Part shown: positions 27,970-42,521 of the stretch, in pieces
How the letters are laid out: every line of letters starts with the position of its first letter
Numbering within the stretch: the stretch's first letter is position 1
DNA from: a virus
Lineage: Duplodnaviria > Caudoviricetes
Length of the DNA stretch: 50,855 bases
IMG/VR virus record: IMGVR_UViG_3300020045_006039
Span: 1 to 50,855 of that record
Direction: 5' to 3' (one strand)
Made by a program: the position numbers and the translations under genes
The notes under the pieces: model-generated
The model's input: the letters and a program-made list of their open reading frames with translations, nothing else
Told to the model about the DNA's origin: nothing
The model's database searches: none

Positions 27970-28271
27970 GCCTCATCCTTAACCCAATGATTAGCCACAT
28001 CGATTGGCGTTGTCTTGATCGGCTTACGATGCGCCTTTGGATCGAGCGCCGGATCGTAATCAGGTGTTGGCTTGCCGTGTTGCCGCCGATAGCGATAATG
28101 CAACGTCGGTATCAGCGCGGCTTGCTTGAGCGTGATCTCTTGCCCCGATCGAATCGCGTCAGATACGCACCGCACAAAGCGCTTATCGAACGAACCGACC
28201 GCGAAGGTGCATCGGCGCAAGTCTCCAAGTAGTGATTTTTCCATGCCTGTGGCGAGTCGTTTGTCGCTCAT
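27966..28271 (-). CDS. Hypothetical phage protein
   Basis: ATGA-coupled ORF. Confidence 0.6.
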   Translation of the reverse strand: MSDKRLATGMEKSLLGDLRRCTFAVGSFDKRFVRCVSDAIRSGQEITLKQAALIPTLHYRYRRQHGKPTPDYDPALDPKAHRKPIKTTPIDVANHWVKDEA

Positions 28272-28810
28272 GCCTTCAACTCCTCGATCATCTTTGCCAG
28301 GAGTTTGATCACGCCCTCAAACTCTTTGCGCTGATAACTGGGCACATCTTCCAGCATCTTTTCAGCAGACGAATGTAGCCGGTTCAGTTTGCGCCCCCAC
28401 CTCGATCGATATTCGGTCGGCTCTTGTTCGCTCTCGATATAATCCGCCATCGACTCAGGCGACCAGCCTTCTTGTTTCGCCGCCGCCAAGTAGCCGATCG
28501 CCTCAAGCGGGCCAAACTCGTACCGCTTGATCGCCTGCCCCAACTTCCAAAAGTGGGCATAGGGCAGACAAAAACGAAGTTCCGACGTTTGCGGTAGTTC
28601 GCGCCGGAGCGACAGATACACCACCGCCGCCGCTGCCATACGCTCGATCGTGTCCACTGAGCGACGCAAGCGCAACGCCAGCCCGATCGTATCGCCGCGC
28701 TGGTACTCACCGACGATCCGCCGCGCCGCAAAGCACACGCCCCACTGTGCCGCGTCACCATTGCCTGCGTGATGGACAGCGCGTTCGATGAAGTAGGCCG
28801 CGCCGGTCAT
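28268..28810 (-). CDS. Hypothetical helical protein (possibly DNA-binding)
   Basis: ATGA-coupled start (MTGAAYFIE...). Confidence 0.55.
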   Translation of the reverse strand: MTGAAYFIERAVHHAGNGDAAQWGVCFAARRIVGEYQRGDTIGLALRLRRSVDTIERMAAAAVVYLSLRRELPQTSELRFCLPYAHFWKLGQAIKRYEFGPLEAIGYLAAAKQEGWSPESMADYIESEQEPTEYRSRWGRKLNRLHSSAEKMLEDVPSYQRKEFEGVIKLLAKMIEELKA

Positions 28811-29193
28811 GCCGTCACGCTTTCGATCTCTATCAAGTTCGCGATCTCGGGTGGGAGCGCAATGCGAGGATAAGGTTTGCCAACAACTGATCGGTAGCAT
28901 TTTCTAAACCACTTCTTAGCAGATTGATACTCGATCGAGTTGGCTAAAATGGGCAGAGACAAGCCCGTCCATATTTCCGGCCTGCGATTTGCTTCTGATA
29001 ACAACTTTCGCGCTAATCCGTAGGGCAGATCATCCCCTAACCCGTAGCCCGATCGAACGTGCGTAATTGTCCAGCCTACGTCATGCTCAAGCGATCGGTG
29101 CAATGCCAACTCGCCGTGAACATCAGCCGAAATTTTAATTTTCATTTGTCGGCGCGAATTGCCATGCAAAATAGAAATTGTTTGTTTGCTCAT
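28807..29193 (-). CDS. Hypothetical protein
   Basis: ATGA-coupled ORF. Confidence 0.55.
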   Translation of the reverse strand: MSKQTISILHGNSRRQMKIKISADVHGELALHRSLEHDVGWTITHVRSGYGLGDDLPYGLARKLLSEANRRPEIWTGLSLPILANSIEYQSAKKWFRKCYRSVVGKPYPRIALPPEIANLIEIESVTA

Positions 29194-29744
29194 CCCGCCT
29201 CGCTTTCGTCCGCGCCGCCGCGCAACGACGCAGGCAGGATAGACCGTAATTCACCGATCGGAATGTTTGGTAGATACTTTGCCTTGAACTCAGTAAGCGT
29301 CATGGCTGATATTTTGTCGGCAGAGTCGGGTAGCACCGCCGCCAGTTGATCGGCTAAGTGGTGCAACGTTTCAATAACCGTTTGATCATCAACCATGCCG
29401 AGGATACCTTGAACATCGCTCAGACTTTGATCAATGACTCCCCGTAGTTCGCCTATGATTTCGCTAGACTCTTCTGATTCGCTTGTCAACACGCTGACTA
29501 GATCGTCCGCCGCCTCCGCCCGCCGCACGGCGGCGGACAGCGCGCGTTCGAGTGCGGCCTCGCGGCGGAACTTCCACATGATGCGGCGAAATGTCTTTTT
29601 CTTTTTCGTAAACGGAAGTTGCCGATAGTAAAATTTCCACCTTGCCTGAGCGTTACTGCTCGCGCTCCGCGTCTCATTGCGCTTGCGGATCGCGTCGAGA
29701 TCGGGCGCGGCGGTTTCGGGCGGGCGGTTCGGTTGGCCGGTCAT
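29190..29744 (-). CDS. Hypothetical mosaic coiled-coil protein
   Basis: ATGA-coupled; alternating GC-rich and AT-rich blocks. Confidence 0.55.
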   Translation of the reverse strand: MTGQPNRPPETAAPDLDAIRKRNETRSASSNAQARWKFYYRQLPFTKKKKTFRRIMWKFRREAALERALSAAVRRAEAADDLVSVLTSESEESSEIIGELRGVIDQSLSDVQGILGMVDDQTVIETLHHLADQLAAVLPDSADKISAMTLTEFKAKYLPNIPIGELRSILPASLRGGADESEAG

Positions 29745-31212: not shown

Positions 31213-32669
31213 GCCTTCACCCCCTGCGGCGCGGGCAGCGCCTCGATCGCCGCGATTCGCTTACCAAGCCATTCCGAGCACGGCACGGCGACCGCATTGC
31301 CAGTTTGCCGATAGCGGGTTGAATCACTTTGACCCGCCGTATGGTTATCGGGGAAGCCCTGCAAGCGTTCGCACTCGATCGGCATCAATCGACGAACGCC
31401 CATGCTACCCGCGATAGCATCCTCGCGGCCTGACAGTTGAGCGATACCGTCCTTGCGATGAATAACAGTTCGATCACTACCGCCCATAAATGGATCGAAG
31501 GCGATGATCGGATTCTGATAATTCAAAGAATGACCGCCCGTCTTTTTGCTTTGCAGTGTACCGCTGATACCGTCAGGTTGCTCTCGCATATTTCGCACAT
31601 CGATCGCGGAGACAATAAAAGTTTCTTCTGACCCATCTCCTAGCCTCTGATTCTTTGCCGTCAATGCTTTGGCGATATAGTTCTGCTGTTTCATGCCTGC
31701 CTCAGCCGATAACGCACCGACGATAGCGCCATCGCCGTTGATCATTCGTACTTCGTCGCGGGTGTTTTGCTGAAAGGCTACCGCATGAACTTCGCTGGAA
31801 TTAAGAGTGTAACTCGAACCGTCGGTAATCACCTCGCCATACTGCGGGCCGTTCTGAGGCTCACGACCTATCGACGCGCCTTTTATAACCGCGATCATCT
31901 TTTCGGCTTCGGTTCGTGCGTTGCCCGTGCGACTTGTTCCAGCGCCGCTTGCAGGAATGGCGGCAACAATTTGCCGCGCTTCTCGGCTCGGCGCAGAATC
32001 CCACGCGCCGCTTTCTGACTCAAATAATACTTGCGCGGCGCGTCCGCTTCCAAGACTTCCGACAATGAACACACGGCGGCGGCGCTGGGCCACTCCAAAG
32101 TATTGAGCGTCAAGTATCCGCCACGCGACGCCATACCCGCATTCGACCAACCCGCGAAGGATAACGGCAAAATCTTGTCCGCCGTTGCTGGATAAAAGAC
32201 CGGGGACGTTCTCGATAACAACCCATCGCGGGTTAAGGTCTGCAAGAATGCGATGGAACTCAAACCATAGTCCGCTTCGCTTTCCAGCCAATCCCGCGCG
32301 GAGTCCGGCCACCGATACGTCTTGACAGGGGAATCCTCCGCAAATAAGATCAACTGCTTCGACTGCTTGGCTGTTGATTTCTTTGACATCGTTAATCCTT
32401 TGGGTGTGGGGATAATGACGCTCTAAAACTTTTTCAGTTGATCGCCCGTAATTATTCAACTCCGCCCACTTCGATTTTATTTTCTTGACTTGCTTTGGCG
32501 ATGTTGCCGCTTCAATCTCTGCGTTGTGCTCAGACAGCGCATAGGGAGATTCGTCAGGACGGAATAGATCGCACTGAAAAGCGCAACGCATTCCAGCGCG
32601 ATCGAAGCCGACATCGAATCCGCCAATGCCTGTAAACAAACTACCGTAAGTAAGTGGCCTACCAGTCAT
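31209..32669 (-). CDS. dcm: DNA (cytosine-5) methyltransferase
   Basis: Motifs I (LFTGIGG), IV (GFPCQ), VI (ENV), VIII (QRRRR), IX (RRLMPIECERLQGFP) and X (GNAV). Confidence 0.95.
   Translation of the reverse strand: MTGRPLTYGSLFTGIGGFDVGFDRAGMRCAFQCDLFRPDESPYALSEHNAEIEAATSPKQVKKIKSKWAELNNYGRSTEKVLERHYPHTQRINDVKEINSQAVEAVDLICGGFPCQDVSVAGLRAGLAGKRSGLWFEFHRILADLNPRWVVIENVPGLLSSNGGQDFAVILRGLVECGYGVAWRILDAQYFGVAQRRRRVFIVGSLGSGRAAQVLFESESGAWDSAPSREARQIVAAIPASGAGTSRTGNARTEAEKMIAVIKGASIGREPQNGPQYGEVITDGSSYTLNSSEVHAVAFQQNTRDEVRMINGDGAIVGALSAEAGMKQQNYIAKALTAKNQRLGDGSEETFIVSAIDVRNMREQPDGISGTLQSKKTGGHSLNYQNPIIAFDPFMGGSDRTVIHRKDGIAQLSGREDAIAGSMGVRRLMPIECERLQGFPDNHTAGQSDSTRYRQTGNAVAVPCSEWLGKRIAAIEALPAPQGVKA
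31895..32389 (-). CDS. Overprinted +1-frame protein inside the C5 MTase (putative accessory subunit)
   Basis: Own SD AAGGA 7 nt before ATG; 164 codons open; 'CSLSEVLEADAPRKYYLS..AARGILRRAEKRGK.LP'. Confidence 0.6.
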   Translation of the reverse strand: MSKKSTAKQSKQLILFAEDSPVKTYRWPDSARDWLESEADYGLSSIAFLQTLTRDGLLSRTSPVFYPATADKILPLSFAGWSNAGMASRGGYLTLNTLEWPSAAAVCSLSEVLEADAPRKYYLSQKAARGILRRAEKRGKLLPPFLQAALEQVARATHEPKPKR

Positions 32670-32838: not shown

Positions 32839-32866
32839 ATTATATTCAGATCGCGCTAGAAGTCAA
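32839..32866 (-). promoter_or_regulatory. Sigma70-type promoter of dcm
   Basis: TTGACT-N16-TATAAT. Confidence 0.75.
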
Positions 32867-32911
32867 GAAGCAATTTCAATAAATCAGGAAAGACTATATC
32901 TATTCCCGCCG

Positions 32912-33307
32912 CTACTTCTCCCCGCCCCTCACCGCGTCCAGCCCCAGCCGCCCGCGCCGCACGTTCCACGCATCGGCGCAGCGAATGAGCCGCAGGGCGT
33001 GCGCGGCGTCGGCCTCGTTGCGGTTGCGGACGCGCAGCACGCGGATGCCGCTCGTCACATAGTCCAGTTCGTCGCGTTCCTTGTCGCGCGCCCGATCGTG
33101 TTCCGGGCCGTCTACCTCGATCGCAATGCCTAAGCGTGCATTCCAGAAGTCGAAGATACGATAGCCCCATACGGCTTGTCGTGTCCAGCGGTAGCCGGTC
33201 GCCCTCAACTTGTCGCGCAGCCAGTTTTCGTTCGGGTTGCGGCGGGCTAGTTCGAGGTTCTGCGCGCGGCGGCGTTGCATGTGGGGGGTTATCGGTTGTG
33301 GGGTCAT
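32912..33307 (-). CDS. DUF559/Vsr-like endonuclease
   Basis: 'IFDFW...IAIEVDGPEH...DKERDE...GIRVLRV.N'. Confidence 0.85.
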   Translation of the reverse strand: MTPQPITPHMQRRRAQNLELARRNPNENWLRDKLRATGYRWTRQAVWGYRIFDFWNARLGIAIEVDGPEHDRARDKERDELDYVTSGIRVLRVRNRNEADAAHALRLIRCADAWNVRRGRLGLDAVRGGEK

Positions 33308-33510
33308 GCAACAGCCCTTTTTAGTTCATCGAATATCTCGTTCTTGATTTCATCCTCGATGTCGTGCCACCACCAATCGAACCCCTTGCGACTATTGAGA
33401 ACTTTGTAAGCCCTCCAAGCGCGTTGAGTTTCCAAGTCTTGTCGGCCTATCTTTTCATCATAGTTCTGAGTGCCGTCATACATCAGTTCGTACAGATCTA
33501 TAAAGTTCAT
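33304..33510 (-). CDS. Hypothetical protein (68 aa)
   Basis: ATGA overlap with the RNase H stop (MNFIDLYE...). Confidence 0.55.
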   Translation of the reverse strand: MNFIDLYELMYDGTQNYDEKIGRQDLETQRAWRAYKVLNSRKGFDWWWHDIEDEIKNEIFDELKRAVA

Positions 33511-33902
33511 TGTCCCAACCTCGCCATATTCGACAACTCGTCGCACCGTTCGTTTTCGGGATGGCCGGTATGCCCGCGTATCCATTCGGTCGTGACGCGG
33601 TGCTGACTGACCAACGACTTGATCCGCAACAGTAGTTCGATATTCGCCTTCGGTTTCTTCATGCCTTCGATCGCCTTCTGTGTGTACTCGCTGTCTGTCC
33701 AGATCGTCACGTCGTGCGGCCCGCCCTTGAGTGCCGATAGCGCCTCGATCACGGCGGTCAATTCGGCGGTGTTGTTCGTGGCGATCGGTAGCCGTCCGCT
33801 GATCTCTTTCGTCTGCCCGTTGGCTTTCAGGATCGCCGCCCAGCCGCCTGTACCGCCAGGGTTCGGCCATACGCTGCCGTCGGTGTAGATGTCGATGTGC
33901 AT
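33507..33902 (-). CDS. rnhA: Ribonuclease HI
   Basis: All catalytic motifs present: YTDGS, NNTAEL, TDSEY, WIRGH, NERCD. Confidence 0.95.
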   Translation of the reverse strand: MHIDIYTDGSVWPNPGGTGGWAAILKANGQTKEISGRLPIATNNTAELTAVIEALSALKGGPHDVTIWTDSEYTQKAIEGMKKPKANIELLLRIKSLVSQHRVTTEWIRGHTGHPENERCDELSNMARLGQ

Positions 33903-33960
33903 TTGTTCGTTGTCCTTTCAGGTAGTTTGTTTTGGATAATCATTGTTGTGGTGTATGCGT

Positions 33961-34256
33961 AATCCTCCTATCACATGATCAATGGTGCCGATCACGGATA
34001 GAAGGATTGATCGATAATCACCGCCGTGGAGTGCTTTACAGGAACACTCACCCGATGCCGTGGCTACGTGTGCCACAAACGATCCAGCCGCCGCTTACAA
34101 GAGACTCAACGCGCTCAGGTGGTTGAATTTACCGCGTAGCCATTCGGCTTCGTCTCTTGCATCCTGCCCAAAGGCAAACCGACGGAGGTTAACATGTTGA
34201 TCTGAGTCGGCGGATTTGGATACTTGCACACGGACTTTGACGCGGTGATCAACCGC
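33961..34256 (-). ncRNA. Large multi-stem non-coding RNA upstream of rnhA
   Basis: At least seven stems in a gap with no credible ORF; their mismatches resolve as G-U pairs on the minus strand. Confidence 0.65.
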
Positions 34257-34271
34257 AGTATTGATCAGTCG

Positions 34272-34280
34272 TGCTATAAT
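34272..34280 (+). promoter_or_regulatory. Extended -10 promoter of the antisense sRNA
   Basis: TGCTATAAT. Confidence 0.65.
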
Positions 34281-34285
34281 TTAGT

Positions 34286-34362
34286 TGTGAGTGTGCAGAC
34301 TCACAGCGTTGTAAAACGCGAACGGCGGCTACTGACTTACGTCAGCGGTCGCCGTGTCGTTT
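34286..34362 (+). ncRNA. ~77-nt three-hairpin antisense RNA
   Basis: SL1 34286-34305, SL2 34306-34319 (GUAA loop), SL3 34322-34355 (G-U pairs on +). Confidence 0.65.
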
Positions 34363-34888
34363 AATGTTGCTTATACGGGTTAGACTCTGCGATCTGTAAA
34401 TACAAGTTGCCGCTACATCCATCGCTAACCCCGCATTTCCAGTCACACTTCACTTGTATCTTGACTTCCATCTTGACTAAAATATCAAGCCCGCTAATTT
34501 GCATTTGCTTATCTTCAACAATTTCAGGCGCGGCGTTCATGGGGAACAGGCCGCGATTCAATAAGACCCTAACAACTTCAACTGCTTTGTTACCCTTTGA
34601 TGTTGTGTTGTCCGCCTTGTTAAAATCAACCGCTGCAACCACGTCGGCGGGGATGTCCACAACTCGCAAGCCATCAATGTCGAAAGGCGGGACAAGCAGC
34701 CCCATCGCCGTTAAAATCGATCCGGTGTAAGCTGGTGCTTCGTGGTAGTGATGAGACTTAATTGCCCGCACAGCACTAGATGTCTGAAATACATAAACAC
34801 ACTCACCAACTACTGAGACATGCGCCCGCAGATCGCTCTTTTCTTGAAGTATTCCATATTCAAACAGGCTCATGCTTGATTTCCCCAC
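34361..34888 (-). CDS. Restriction-endonuclease-fold (PD-(D/E)xK-like) protein
   Basis: 'QISGLDIL...KIQVKCD...GNLYLQ'; overlaps the MT-A70 stop. Confidence 0.55.
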   Translation of the reverse strand: MGKSSMSLFEYGILQEKSDLRAHVSVVGECVYVFQTSSAVRAIKSHHYHEAPAYTGSILTAMGLLVPPFDIDGLRVVDIPADVVAAVDFNKADNTTSKGNKAVEVVRVLLNRGLFPMNAAPEIVEDKQMQISGLDILVKMEVKIQVKCDWKCGVSDGCSGNLYLQIAESNPYKQH

Positions 34889-36240: not shown

Positions 36241-36328
36241 CACAAACATTATACACCCGTTGTCAAGTGCCTGCAAGTCAAAGTGTCTACAACATTTCTT
36301 TTACGGCCTTTGCACATTTGGTCATCTT

Positions 36329-36396
36329 TGCCGCCGCCGGAGTCGAACCGTTTTATCGGACTGCAAATCCGATCTCGTCCCACGTCTATCAGCGGC
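36329..36396 (-). ncRNA. tRNA-like element (degenerate, UGC anticodon loop)
   Basis: Acceptor-like stem GCCGCTG/CGGCGGC, anticodon arm TCGGA-TTTGCAG-TCCGA, T-loop GGTTCGACTCC; D and T arms shortened; no CCA. Confidence 0.5.
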
Positions 36397-36451
36397 AAAC
36401 ATGCGCGATGCCGTGCGCGATATTCTCCTGTGGCTCAGTATACCTCATCTG

Positions 36452-42402: not shown

Positions 42403-42430
42403 ATTATACATATATCCCGCCAAAAGTCAA
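42403..42430 (-). promoter_or_regulatory. Leftward early promoter
   Basis: TTGACT-N16-TATAAT. Confidence 0.75.
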
Positions 42431-42448
42431 GCCCCAATTTCAAGACTC

Positions 42449-42493: not shown

Positions 42494-42521
42494 TTGACAC
42501 GCGGCGAATTATGAATATAAT
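42494..42521 (+). promoter_or_regulatory. Rightward early promoter
   Basis: TTGACA-N16-TATAAT with both hexamers at consensus. Confidence 0.8.

Follow-up and report, generated by a model that had tools for sequence, protein, structure and literature searches.

An EGFOA-family RNA beside an RNase HI gene in a tailed phage: a candidate primer for replication without a recognisable initiator

Introduction

RNA-primed replication in the style of ColE1 has been described for plasmids of the Enterobacteriaceae and Vibrionaceae, at least in the available parts of the sources (PMC3167613, PMC3035462), and the priming of ColE1 involves RNase H, DNA polymerase I and pas steps (PMC3167613). The main text of PMC5737381, as far as available, does not name EGFOA; it describes three motifs of plasmids, ARRPOF and PAGEV among them, with a possible part in replication. 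The RNA considered here belongs to the EGFOA family (RF02955) and lies next to the ribonuclease HI gene rnhA in a 50,855-nt stretch of tailed-phage DNA, IMG/VR virus record IMGVR_UViG_3300020045_006039, the whole of which is referred to as the window.

The family has been described as one of putative small RNAs found in intergenic regions that are gene-free over an unusual length, and a trimer and a strand-swapped dimer have been resolved by cryo-electron microscopy (cryo-EM) (bioRxiv 10.64898/2026.07.01.735769). The available part of that preprint assigns no function to the family and mentions neither plasmids, replication, RNase H nor antisense RNA. No paper describing a function for EGFOA was found in our literature search, which did not extend to the supplement of PMC5737381, likely the original description, where an association with plasmids or phages may be remarked on.

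From sequence comparison, we tentatively propose that the EGFOA-family RNA primes replication in cis, taking the place of an initiator protein. The RNA itself is a catalogued one; new here are the wider anatomy described for the family, the tie between EGFOA and replication regions, and the function we propose.

An EGFOA RNA in the largest intergenic gap

The largest intergenic gap of the phage genome spans 458 bp (33903–34360); the second largest measures 353 bp and contains a tRNA-like gene. The only open reading frames (ORFs) inside the gap are of 34–64 aa, judged by their lengths alone with no family scan. The minus strand of the gap has a predicted fold of −155 kcal/mol, which beats 100 of 100 shuffles (z −3.9), and the EGFOA match at its centre scored 47.7 bits against a gathering cut-off of 37.7 (E 1.3e-5), covering the full length of the model (positions 1–108). 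This was the sole gathering-level Rfam match in the window, and no other family matched by E-value. An earlier note on this DNA had reported an unusually long gap of about 460 bp with no credible ORF, holding a multi-stem minus-strand RNA of about 300 nt; both the gap and the structure are borne out, but the note had overlooked that the RNA belongs to a catalogued family.

In this copy the first pseudoknot pairing joins CUCAG (34206–34202) to CUGAG (34118–34114), and the second loop pairing, with the bases after CCGUC, joins GGUU to AACC. The structured region reaches about 140 nt beyond the Rfam model on both sides, and a blastn search with the gap sequence against phages gave no match. The long 3′ hairpin resembles, by eye, those of two homologous loci (L067 and L239) in position and flanking letters. 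Its 3′ arm reads AGGAGG (33969–33964), a broken G-run, and the hairpin is a candidate site of R-loop entry.

Homologs, covariation and RNA nature of the family

Homologs came from six pattern scans over viral, genomic and metagenomic collections, which returned 28, at least 120, 3, 8, 33 and 57 stretches, together with a plasmid BLAST search. A filter that required the closing stem and loop pseudoknot left at least 78 distinct cores, this copy included, which are not independent, about 21 of the 78 coming from one Bacillales-like clade. Two later pattern matches stand outside the filtered set, and two loci (L149 and L160) were dropped as chance matches. Rfam confirmed subsets of the collection, namely eight of ten sources, nine of 11 viral records at E ≤0.001 (seven of them above the cut-off) and five of five genomes.

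The CYCAG–CUGRG pairing, which was not part of the filter, was found to covary across the 78 cores: 58 cores combined G with CCCAG and 12 combined A with CTCAG, four had both, four had neither, and there were no crosses. The second loop pairing occurred as 31 sequence types, a count that is no independent test because this pairing formed part of the filter. The hairpin that follows the CYCAG–CUGRG pairing had a tetraloop of the GNRA or UNCG type in 21 of the 78 cores and the reverse motif in one, a bias which indicates that EGFOA is an RNA on this strand. The next ORF 3′ of the core lay in sense in 32 loci and antisense in 34, which argues that EGFOA is not a leader. Orthologous copies keep their position between strains, and no shared protein family joins most of the loci.

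Origin-like anatomy of EGFOA loci

In 60 of 77 loci a run of at least five G residues lay 15–175 nt past the core, compared to 7/77 upstream, 6/73 further downstream and a base rate of 8 %. The G-run forms the 3′ arm of a hairpin, and its G residues are retained opposite U: across 381 positions the partner was C in 279, U in 91 and another letter in 11. Further 3′ on the same strand, GCGNAGCG/AGCGNAGC repeats (pas-like) occurred in 22 of 76 loci, mostly of Bacillales, against six of 76 on the other strand, three of 76 upstream and 153 of 3230 background windows. The ColE1 record has a similar order, with gtcagggggg (six G residues) followed by a DnaA box and gagcgtagcgagt, which we take to be the primosome site.

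The neighbours of EGFOA include ParA, TubZ, SSB, Zot, repA, nucleases and excisionase-like helix-turn-helix (HTH) genes with serine or tyrosine recombinases, and no plasmid replication initiator (Rep) family was seen in the scanned genome and viral flanks. In two loci (L317 and L319) a Phg_2220_C protein, whose domain occurs in phage replication proteins, is encoded on the other strand 1.2–2.3 kb from EGFOA. In a set of small Bacillales integrative elements (L086, L099, L119, L131, L134, L300–L302 and L309–L319), EGFOA and pas-like repeats occur together with a short ORF and genes for an excisionase-like HTH protein and a recombinase; over about 2.5 kb around them, neither a plasmid Rep nor a relaxase family was seen. 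Likewise, no Rep family was found in a complete 10-kb Zot virus that carries EGFOA.

Two side observations concern the contents of these loci. A reverse transcriptase gene is convergent with and adjacent to the EGFOA core beside an integrase (L135:5218–6789), and a thiol-activated cytolysin gene stands at the end of a provirus record, G006 (L347:15600–17129).

EGFOA on plasmids and other carriers

Above-cut-off EGFOA matches were found on four complete small plasmids, three of them near partition genes or repA, and three of the four showed no Rep. The 15-kb, Zot-bearing plasmid of Paenibacillus durus and the 30-kb plasmid of Brevibacillus borstelensis, in which EGFOA lies 1.2 kb from parA, had no Rep by annotation, tblastn or Pfam searches of their unnamed ORFs. 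The 61-kb plasmid of P. larvae encodes a TubZ homolog 1.8 kb from EGFOA and had no annotated Rep and no RepA match, and on the 62-kb plasmid of P. urinalis EGFOA lies between repA, with its direct repeats, and parA. A divergent, sub-threshold copy was also present near tubZ on a plasmid of P. amylolyticus, for which no Rep was found. The plasmids of P. durus, B. borstelensis, P. urinalis and P. amylolyticus share the order core, G-run hairpin, pas-like or GC-rich block and DnaA-box-like sites. Among five megaplasmids, two had one EGFOA copy and three had none.

The same GC-rich block, pas-like element and DnaA-box-like sites were also found on two Paenibacillus plasmids without EGFOA (L218:20400–21100 and L217:13950–14420), where they lie behind another folded region that matches nothing in Rfam and may be a further primer-like RNA not yet described. 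Among the viral carriers, a 143-kb record estimated as 97 % complete (G008, locus L089) has an EGFOA-like copy and no DnaB, IstB or Toprim_2 match, making it a second candidate for RNA-primed replication.

The predicted antisense unit

Over the upstream end of the long RNA, the earlier note had placed a plus-strand three-hairpin RNA of about 77 nt. Predicted folding bears out the three hairpins: the region 34287–34362 folds at −39.2 kcal/mol as plus strand and −31.5 kcal/mol as minus strand, the plus strand of 34270–34362 has a fold z of −5.4, and a promoter motif is well placed before it. That motif, TGCTATAAT, is the genome's only TGnTATAAT; because about 0.9 would be expected genome-wide by chance, its weight rests on its position and not on its existence. 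The phage's other promoter-like sites are of the sigma-70 type. On its sequence and position, TGCTATAAT is predicted to drive a putative antisense RNA of about 76 nt. The 3′ U-tail of the unit is short, and the terminator scan made no call at 34287–34362. The unit overlaps the upstream ORF by the stop codon only. When the 5′ domain of the long RNA was blocked in silico, the EGFOA core stayed intact and the downstream fold was altered.

Among 24 metagenome EGFOA loci, 15 had an opposite-strand unit of about 105 nt lying 400–530 nt upstream, with a promoter, a U-tail, conserved stems and variable loops. The Bacillales-like metagenome contigs L237–L267, which bear megaplasmid-type genes, carry for each organism about ten EGFOA units that have diverged, occupy separate loci and are orthologous between strains. 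The antisense RNA of these contigs, with a three-way junction and its own promoter and U-tail, resembles an incompatibility-type RNA.

Ribonuclease HI and the regions upstream of rnhA

The intact rnhA reported in the earlier note was confirmed by its Pfam score (Table 1) and its retained catalytic residues. In an alignment with structures of E. coli RNase HI, residues D8, E46, D70 and D120 correspond to the D-E-D-D catalytic set and H110 to the active-site histidine. Five relatives share 62–73 % identity, and across the six close relatives D8, E46, D70 and H110 are invariant and D120 is present in four. RNase HI was found in 1099 of 50,697 phage records, and the 30 matches listed are mostly from large phages or metagenome fragments.

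The regions 5′ of viral rnhA genes were folded in two sets of 47 and 29 loci, and a gap together with a z below −4 occurred only in L013 and L014. These two large viral contigs have a structured gap of about 270 nt upstream of rnhA (z −4.7 and −4.0) that is not EGFOA. Low z values upstream of rnhA in L358 and L360 were discarded as lying in coding sequence.

Search for replication proteins in the phage and its relatives

No initiator, helicase, loader, primase or polymerase was detected in this phage among 100 ORFs searched against Pfam and PHROGs and 55 ORFs searched against NCBIfam, with no fold searches made on all ORFs. Six-frame searches for DnaB_C, IstB and Toprim_2 also gave no match in this genome and did match in the controls; within these searches the absence claimed in the earlier note is upheld. 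Two candidates for a hidden initiator (28268–28813 and 29190–29744) returned only unnamed clusters in Atlas look-ups, and a weak DnaC match near 16.8 kb was rejected as a chance CxxC match in an antisense frame. Apart from that chance match, none of the replication proteins of relatives used as queries matched this genome. The phage's RecT-like protein is itself a weak match and, used as a query, found no relative.

The relatives do carry such genes. A complete relative (G012; major capsid protein 52 % and portal 42 % identical) encodes an initiator, phrog_1032 (2.7e-8), beside ParB and has no EGFOA. In two further genomes a DnaC-like loader stands directly before rnhA, followed by MT-A70; one of them (G050) shares its terminase (42 %) and MT-A70 with this phage, and the other (G052) shares MT-A70. 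The slot before rnhA is thus held by the RNA in this phage and by a DnaC-like loader in G050 and G052, where the gene preceding DnaC looks like DnaD, with no hidden Markov model support. Two relatives show a gene of this kind by the same methods.

Observations that weigh against a primer role

Several observations count against reading the RNA as a primer, beginning with this copy itself. As the earlier note had acknowledged, there is no ColE1-like G-tract: the longest G-run is three, and fewer than four G residues are found in only four of 77 loci. No GCGNAGCG/AGCGNAGC pas-like repeat lies within 420 nt of this copy.

An antisense unit as a general feature of the family is also not supported. 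Antisense promoters were not enriched over EGFOA homologs (19/73 against 640/1964 in the background), nor were antisense terminators (22/70 against 35/122). In the clade with the conserved antisense unit, a sense terminator-like hairpin stands between the unit and the core. One clade, moreover, has roughly ten EGFOA copies per organism, at least two of them apparently on one 403-kb contig.

The linkage between structure and rnhA that the earlier note had proposed to look for in relatives received no support. An RNase H gene abuts one of the 11 other viral EGFOA copies (L091, convergent), one further RNase H gene lies 2.5–2.9 kb from EGFOA in a bacterial contig, and EGFOA was found in none of 62 rnhA-bearing viral records (29 and 33, with eight and three loci not included). 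One negative on genes near EGFOA copies is soft because the ORF picker can mask genes beneath longer spurious ORFs. Moreover, rnhA occurs in modules with protein initiators too, and in a tree those enzymes are not sister to the one of this phage.

A DnaA-like nonamer had been cited in the earlier note. The site is present (TTATCCAAA) but has no value as evidence: 18 one-mismatch boxes occur in the genome against eight expected in shuffles, there is about a 16 % chance of one per gap of this size, and boxes 3′ of EGFOA cores are not enriched (three of 76 loci, against 82 of 1449 background windows). We therefore rejected the box as support for an origin, as being at chance level. Whole-genome GC skew shows no inflection at 34 kb, where the earlier note had proposed to look for one; the turn near 42 kb is explained by the switch of transcription there, the skew at four-fold sites being about 0.01–0.03 in leftward genes and +0.11 in rightward genes.

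Finally, EGFOA and the lack of a protein initiator do not always go together. The Rep-less or TubZ plasmids pLS20, pBsph and pBtoxis have no EGFOA, and L217, also without EGFOA, is likewise without an annotated Rep, which suggests that absence of Rep is common in these hosts. Conversely, EGFOA coexists with RepA on the P. urinalis plasmid, with a DnaD-like initiator in G001 (where EGFOA is a pattern match only, not scored by Rfam) and, as an EGFOA-like copy of 37 bits just under the cut-off, with DnaB and primase in G009.

Other features of the locus and the record

The gap and the antisense unit sit within one long leftward operon, whose features near the gap are collected in Table 1. By eye, the sequence of the 175-aa ORF that ends at the gap looks like a PD-(D/E)XK nuclease.

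Table 1. Features in and around the rnhA-proximal gap (window coordinates)
Feature	Position	Strand	Basis and remarks
Predicted antisense RNA, about 76 nt, three hairpins	34287..34362	+	Folds; weak U-tail; complementary to the long minus-strand RNA over its 5′ domain
Extended −10 promoter motif TGCTATAAT	34272..34280	+	7 nt before the antisense unit; no good −35
EGFOA core (RF02955), a multi-stem junction; two segments upstream of the terminal loop pair with it	34098..34211	-	Rfam cmscan and covariation
Two small hairpins between EGFOA domain and 3′ hairpin	34026..34076	-	Predicted folds; no comparative support
Long 3′ hairpin	33961..34008	-	Predicted fold; at the place where most homologs have a C/U-rich arm paired to the G-run
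TTATCCAAA, one mismatch from DnaA box	33931..33939	-	Not counted as evidence
Weak candidate promoter for the long RNA (TTTACA, 19 nt, TATAAG)	34370..34400	-	Read by eye inside the upstream ORF; not called by the promoter scan
rnhA, ribonuclease HI, 131 aa	33507..33902	-	Pfam RNase_H 5e-29; NCBIfam PRK00203 2.6e-35; basic protrusion absent
175-aa ORF	34361..34888	-	Ends at the gap; no Pfam, PHROG or NCBIfam match
Genes coupled 3′ of rnhA: 68-aa ORF (33304-33510) and DUF559 endonuclease-like ORF (32912-33307)	32912..33510	-	ORF list, Pfam

The record had been taken for a complete genome. It does carry 121-nt direct terminal repeats at its ends, but CheckV estimates its completeness at only 59 %.

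Several further features were observed. ARAGORN placed a tRNA-Ala(TGC) at 36327–36398 on the minus strand, upstream of the strong promoter-like site at 36253, with an Rfam score not above the cut-off. Two related TTGACT-spacer-TATAAT promoter-like sites (32839–32879 and 42403–42443) are 76 % alike over 41 nt, and a divergent promoter-like site lies at 42494–42521. A 164-aa ORF (31895–32389, minus strand) in a second frame within the cytosine methylase gene may be a real gene because it matches a PHROG family of its own, phrog_16143 (7.7e-9).

Discussion

This phage combines a member of the EGFOA family, supported by its fold and by covariation, with an antisense promoter motif, an intact rnhA and no detectable initiator, and homologs of the RNA lie in origin-like surroundings. 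A primer role is the best reading, though a tentative one, because the anatomy of the family is ColE1-like, with the G-run, the pas-like repeats, partition and repA neighbours and plasmids without Rep. The proposal of an R-loop primer and replication without Rep in the earlier note is thus supported in part: a promoter motif is well placed before the predicted antisense unit, initiators such as relatives carry are absent here, and the family anatomy is origin-like. The DnaA box, a conserved rnhA linkage, a skew inflection and an antisense unit as a family-wide trait find no support.

If the RNA is a primer, a leftward transcript would start at the weak promoter (34400–34370) or, alternatively, arise by read-through from the operon promoter, with its TATAAT at 36253. 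It would fold into the 5′ hairpins and the knotted EGFOA core and stay hybridised to the template at the purine-rich 3′ hairpin, where RNase H would cut the RNA of the hybrid, leaving host DNA polymerase I and the host primosome to extend it. The 76-nt antisense RNA, if transcribed, would pair with the 5′ domain, block priming and so limit its frequency. The weakest and least supported step, which we consider doubtful, is that the primer is matured by the RNase HI of the phage and not by that of the host; the phage enzyme may offset the weak G-tract or merely clear hybrids.

Other explanations were weighed against the same evidence. EGFOA could be an accessory RNA cassette of mobile elements that acts in trans or as a scaffold, for example by binding or decoying a host protein, with the rnhA neighbourhood incidental and the phage using an unrecognised initiator or recombination plus host factors. 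We regard this as somewhat unlikely. The stable trimers or dimers formed in vitro by two EGFOA RNAs, reported in the available part of the preprint (bioRxiv 10.64898/2026.07.01.735769), would suit such a cassette, as would the carriers with replication genes of their own, the ten or so copies in one organism and the lack of rnhA linkage; the weak RecT-like match and the low estimated completeness of the record would leave room for another mode of replication. What it leaves unexplained is the strand-specific G-run kept opposite U, the pas-like repeats, the position of the RNA in plasmid replication and partition regions, and the antisense units.

A single-strand initiation signal, priming the second strand on single-stranded DNA (ssDNA) during conjugation, inovirus or rolling-circle replication and not opening a duplex, is improbable in our judgement. 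Many carriers do pass through ssDNA (Zot elements, conjugative plasmids and integrative elements), an SSB gene lies beside one viral copy, and pas-like repeats are single-strand signals according to the available part of PMC3167613. The bias towards GNRA/UNCG loops and the G–U pairing nevertheless indicate an RNA, this copy has no pas-like repeat, and the Rep-less plasmids and this phage would be left without a leading-strand origin.

It is more improbable still that the plus-strand RNA is an OOP-like or attenuator regulator that controls whether transcription of the methylase/nuclease operon reads through into rnhA and the genes beyond it, with EGFOA a mere leader. The unit does lie within one long leftward operon, blocking the 5′ domain alters the predicted downstream fold, and a crude hairpin-plus-U test flags a sense site 131 nt before the core. 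The near-equal orientations of the ORFs downstream of homologs, and an overlap with the upstream ORF that is unlike OOP in comprising the stop codon only, speak against it. That EGFOA is a selfish element spreading with neighbouring homing-type endonucleases is barely credible: HNH genes flank both sides in L067, DUF1064 or LAGLIDADG/HNH-like genes lie near L091, L093 and L239, and a DUF559 gene is downstream in this phage, but most loci share no protein family, the plasmid and integrative-element copies have no endonuclease, and orthologous copies stay in place between strains.

The primer reading, if true, would give a job to an orphan RNA family that has cryo-EM structures and no function, and would account for how inovirus-like elements, small integrative elements and several Bacillales plasmids without Rep replicate. 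RNA priming in the manner of ColE1 would also reach an unrelated RNA fold, other phyla and a tailed phage. At its broadest, the reading would place EGFOA at the centre of a new class of origins that are primed by RNA, need no Rep and are common to plasmids, inoviruses, integrative elements and tailed phages of several phyla. This phage would then be the self-contained form, its sole replication module being a primer RNA with pseudoknots, an antisense RNA that sets copy number and a phage-encoded RNase HI; we think this full form unlikely. If the RNA is not a primer, the locus is another phage copy of a catalogued RNA.

Compared with known systems, the antisense unit recalls the OOP RNA of lambda, an antisense RNA of similar length beside the replication region that overlaps coding sequence, whereas this unit overlaps a stop codon only and faces a structured non-coding RNA. 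The R-loop origins of T4, such as oriF, replicate from a persistent hybrid of transcript and DNA with the phage's own replisome and need no large folded RNA, whereas this phage has no detectable replisome. The locus is like ColE1 in its long folded RNA, in the small antisense RNA of three hairpins predicted to cover the 5′ end, and in lacking a Rep, and EGFOA homologs add the G-run followed by pas-like repeats. It differs in matching neither RNA I nor RNA II by sequence or by Rfam model, in its pseudoknotted fold, in the absence of a G-tract and pas from this copy, and in its location in a tailed phage with an RNase HI gene of its own. The MRB/pB1067 RNA replicons of Vibrionaceae, PAGEV and ARRPOF likewise represent Rep-independent plasmid origins on structured RNA, pB1067 having a 68-nt antisense RNA, as far as the available parts of the sources describe them (PMC3035462, PMC5737381); no PAGEV or ARRPOF Rfam match was found in the window, and their hosts and folds are different. 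By its full-length, above-gathering match, conserved loop and both pseudoknot pairings, the RNA is the same as EGFOA, and it departs from the described motif in its extension on both sides of the model, in reading AGGAGG where the family has the G-run, and in the predicted antisense unit and the adjacent rnhA. It is therefore a member of EGFOA and not of the ColE1, MRB, PAGEV or ARRPOF families, and it may work like them.

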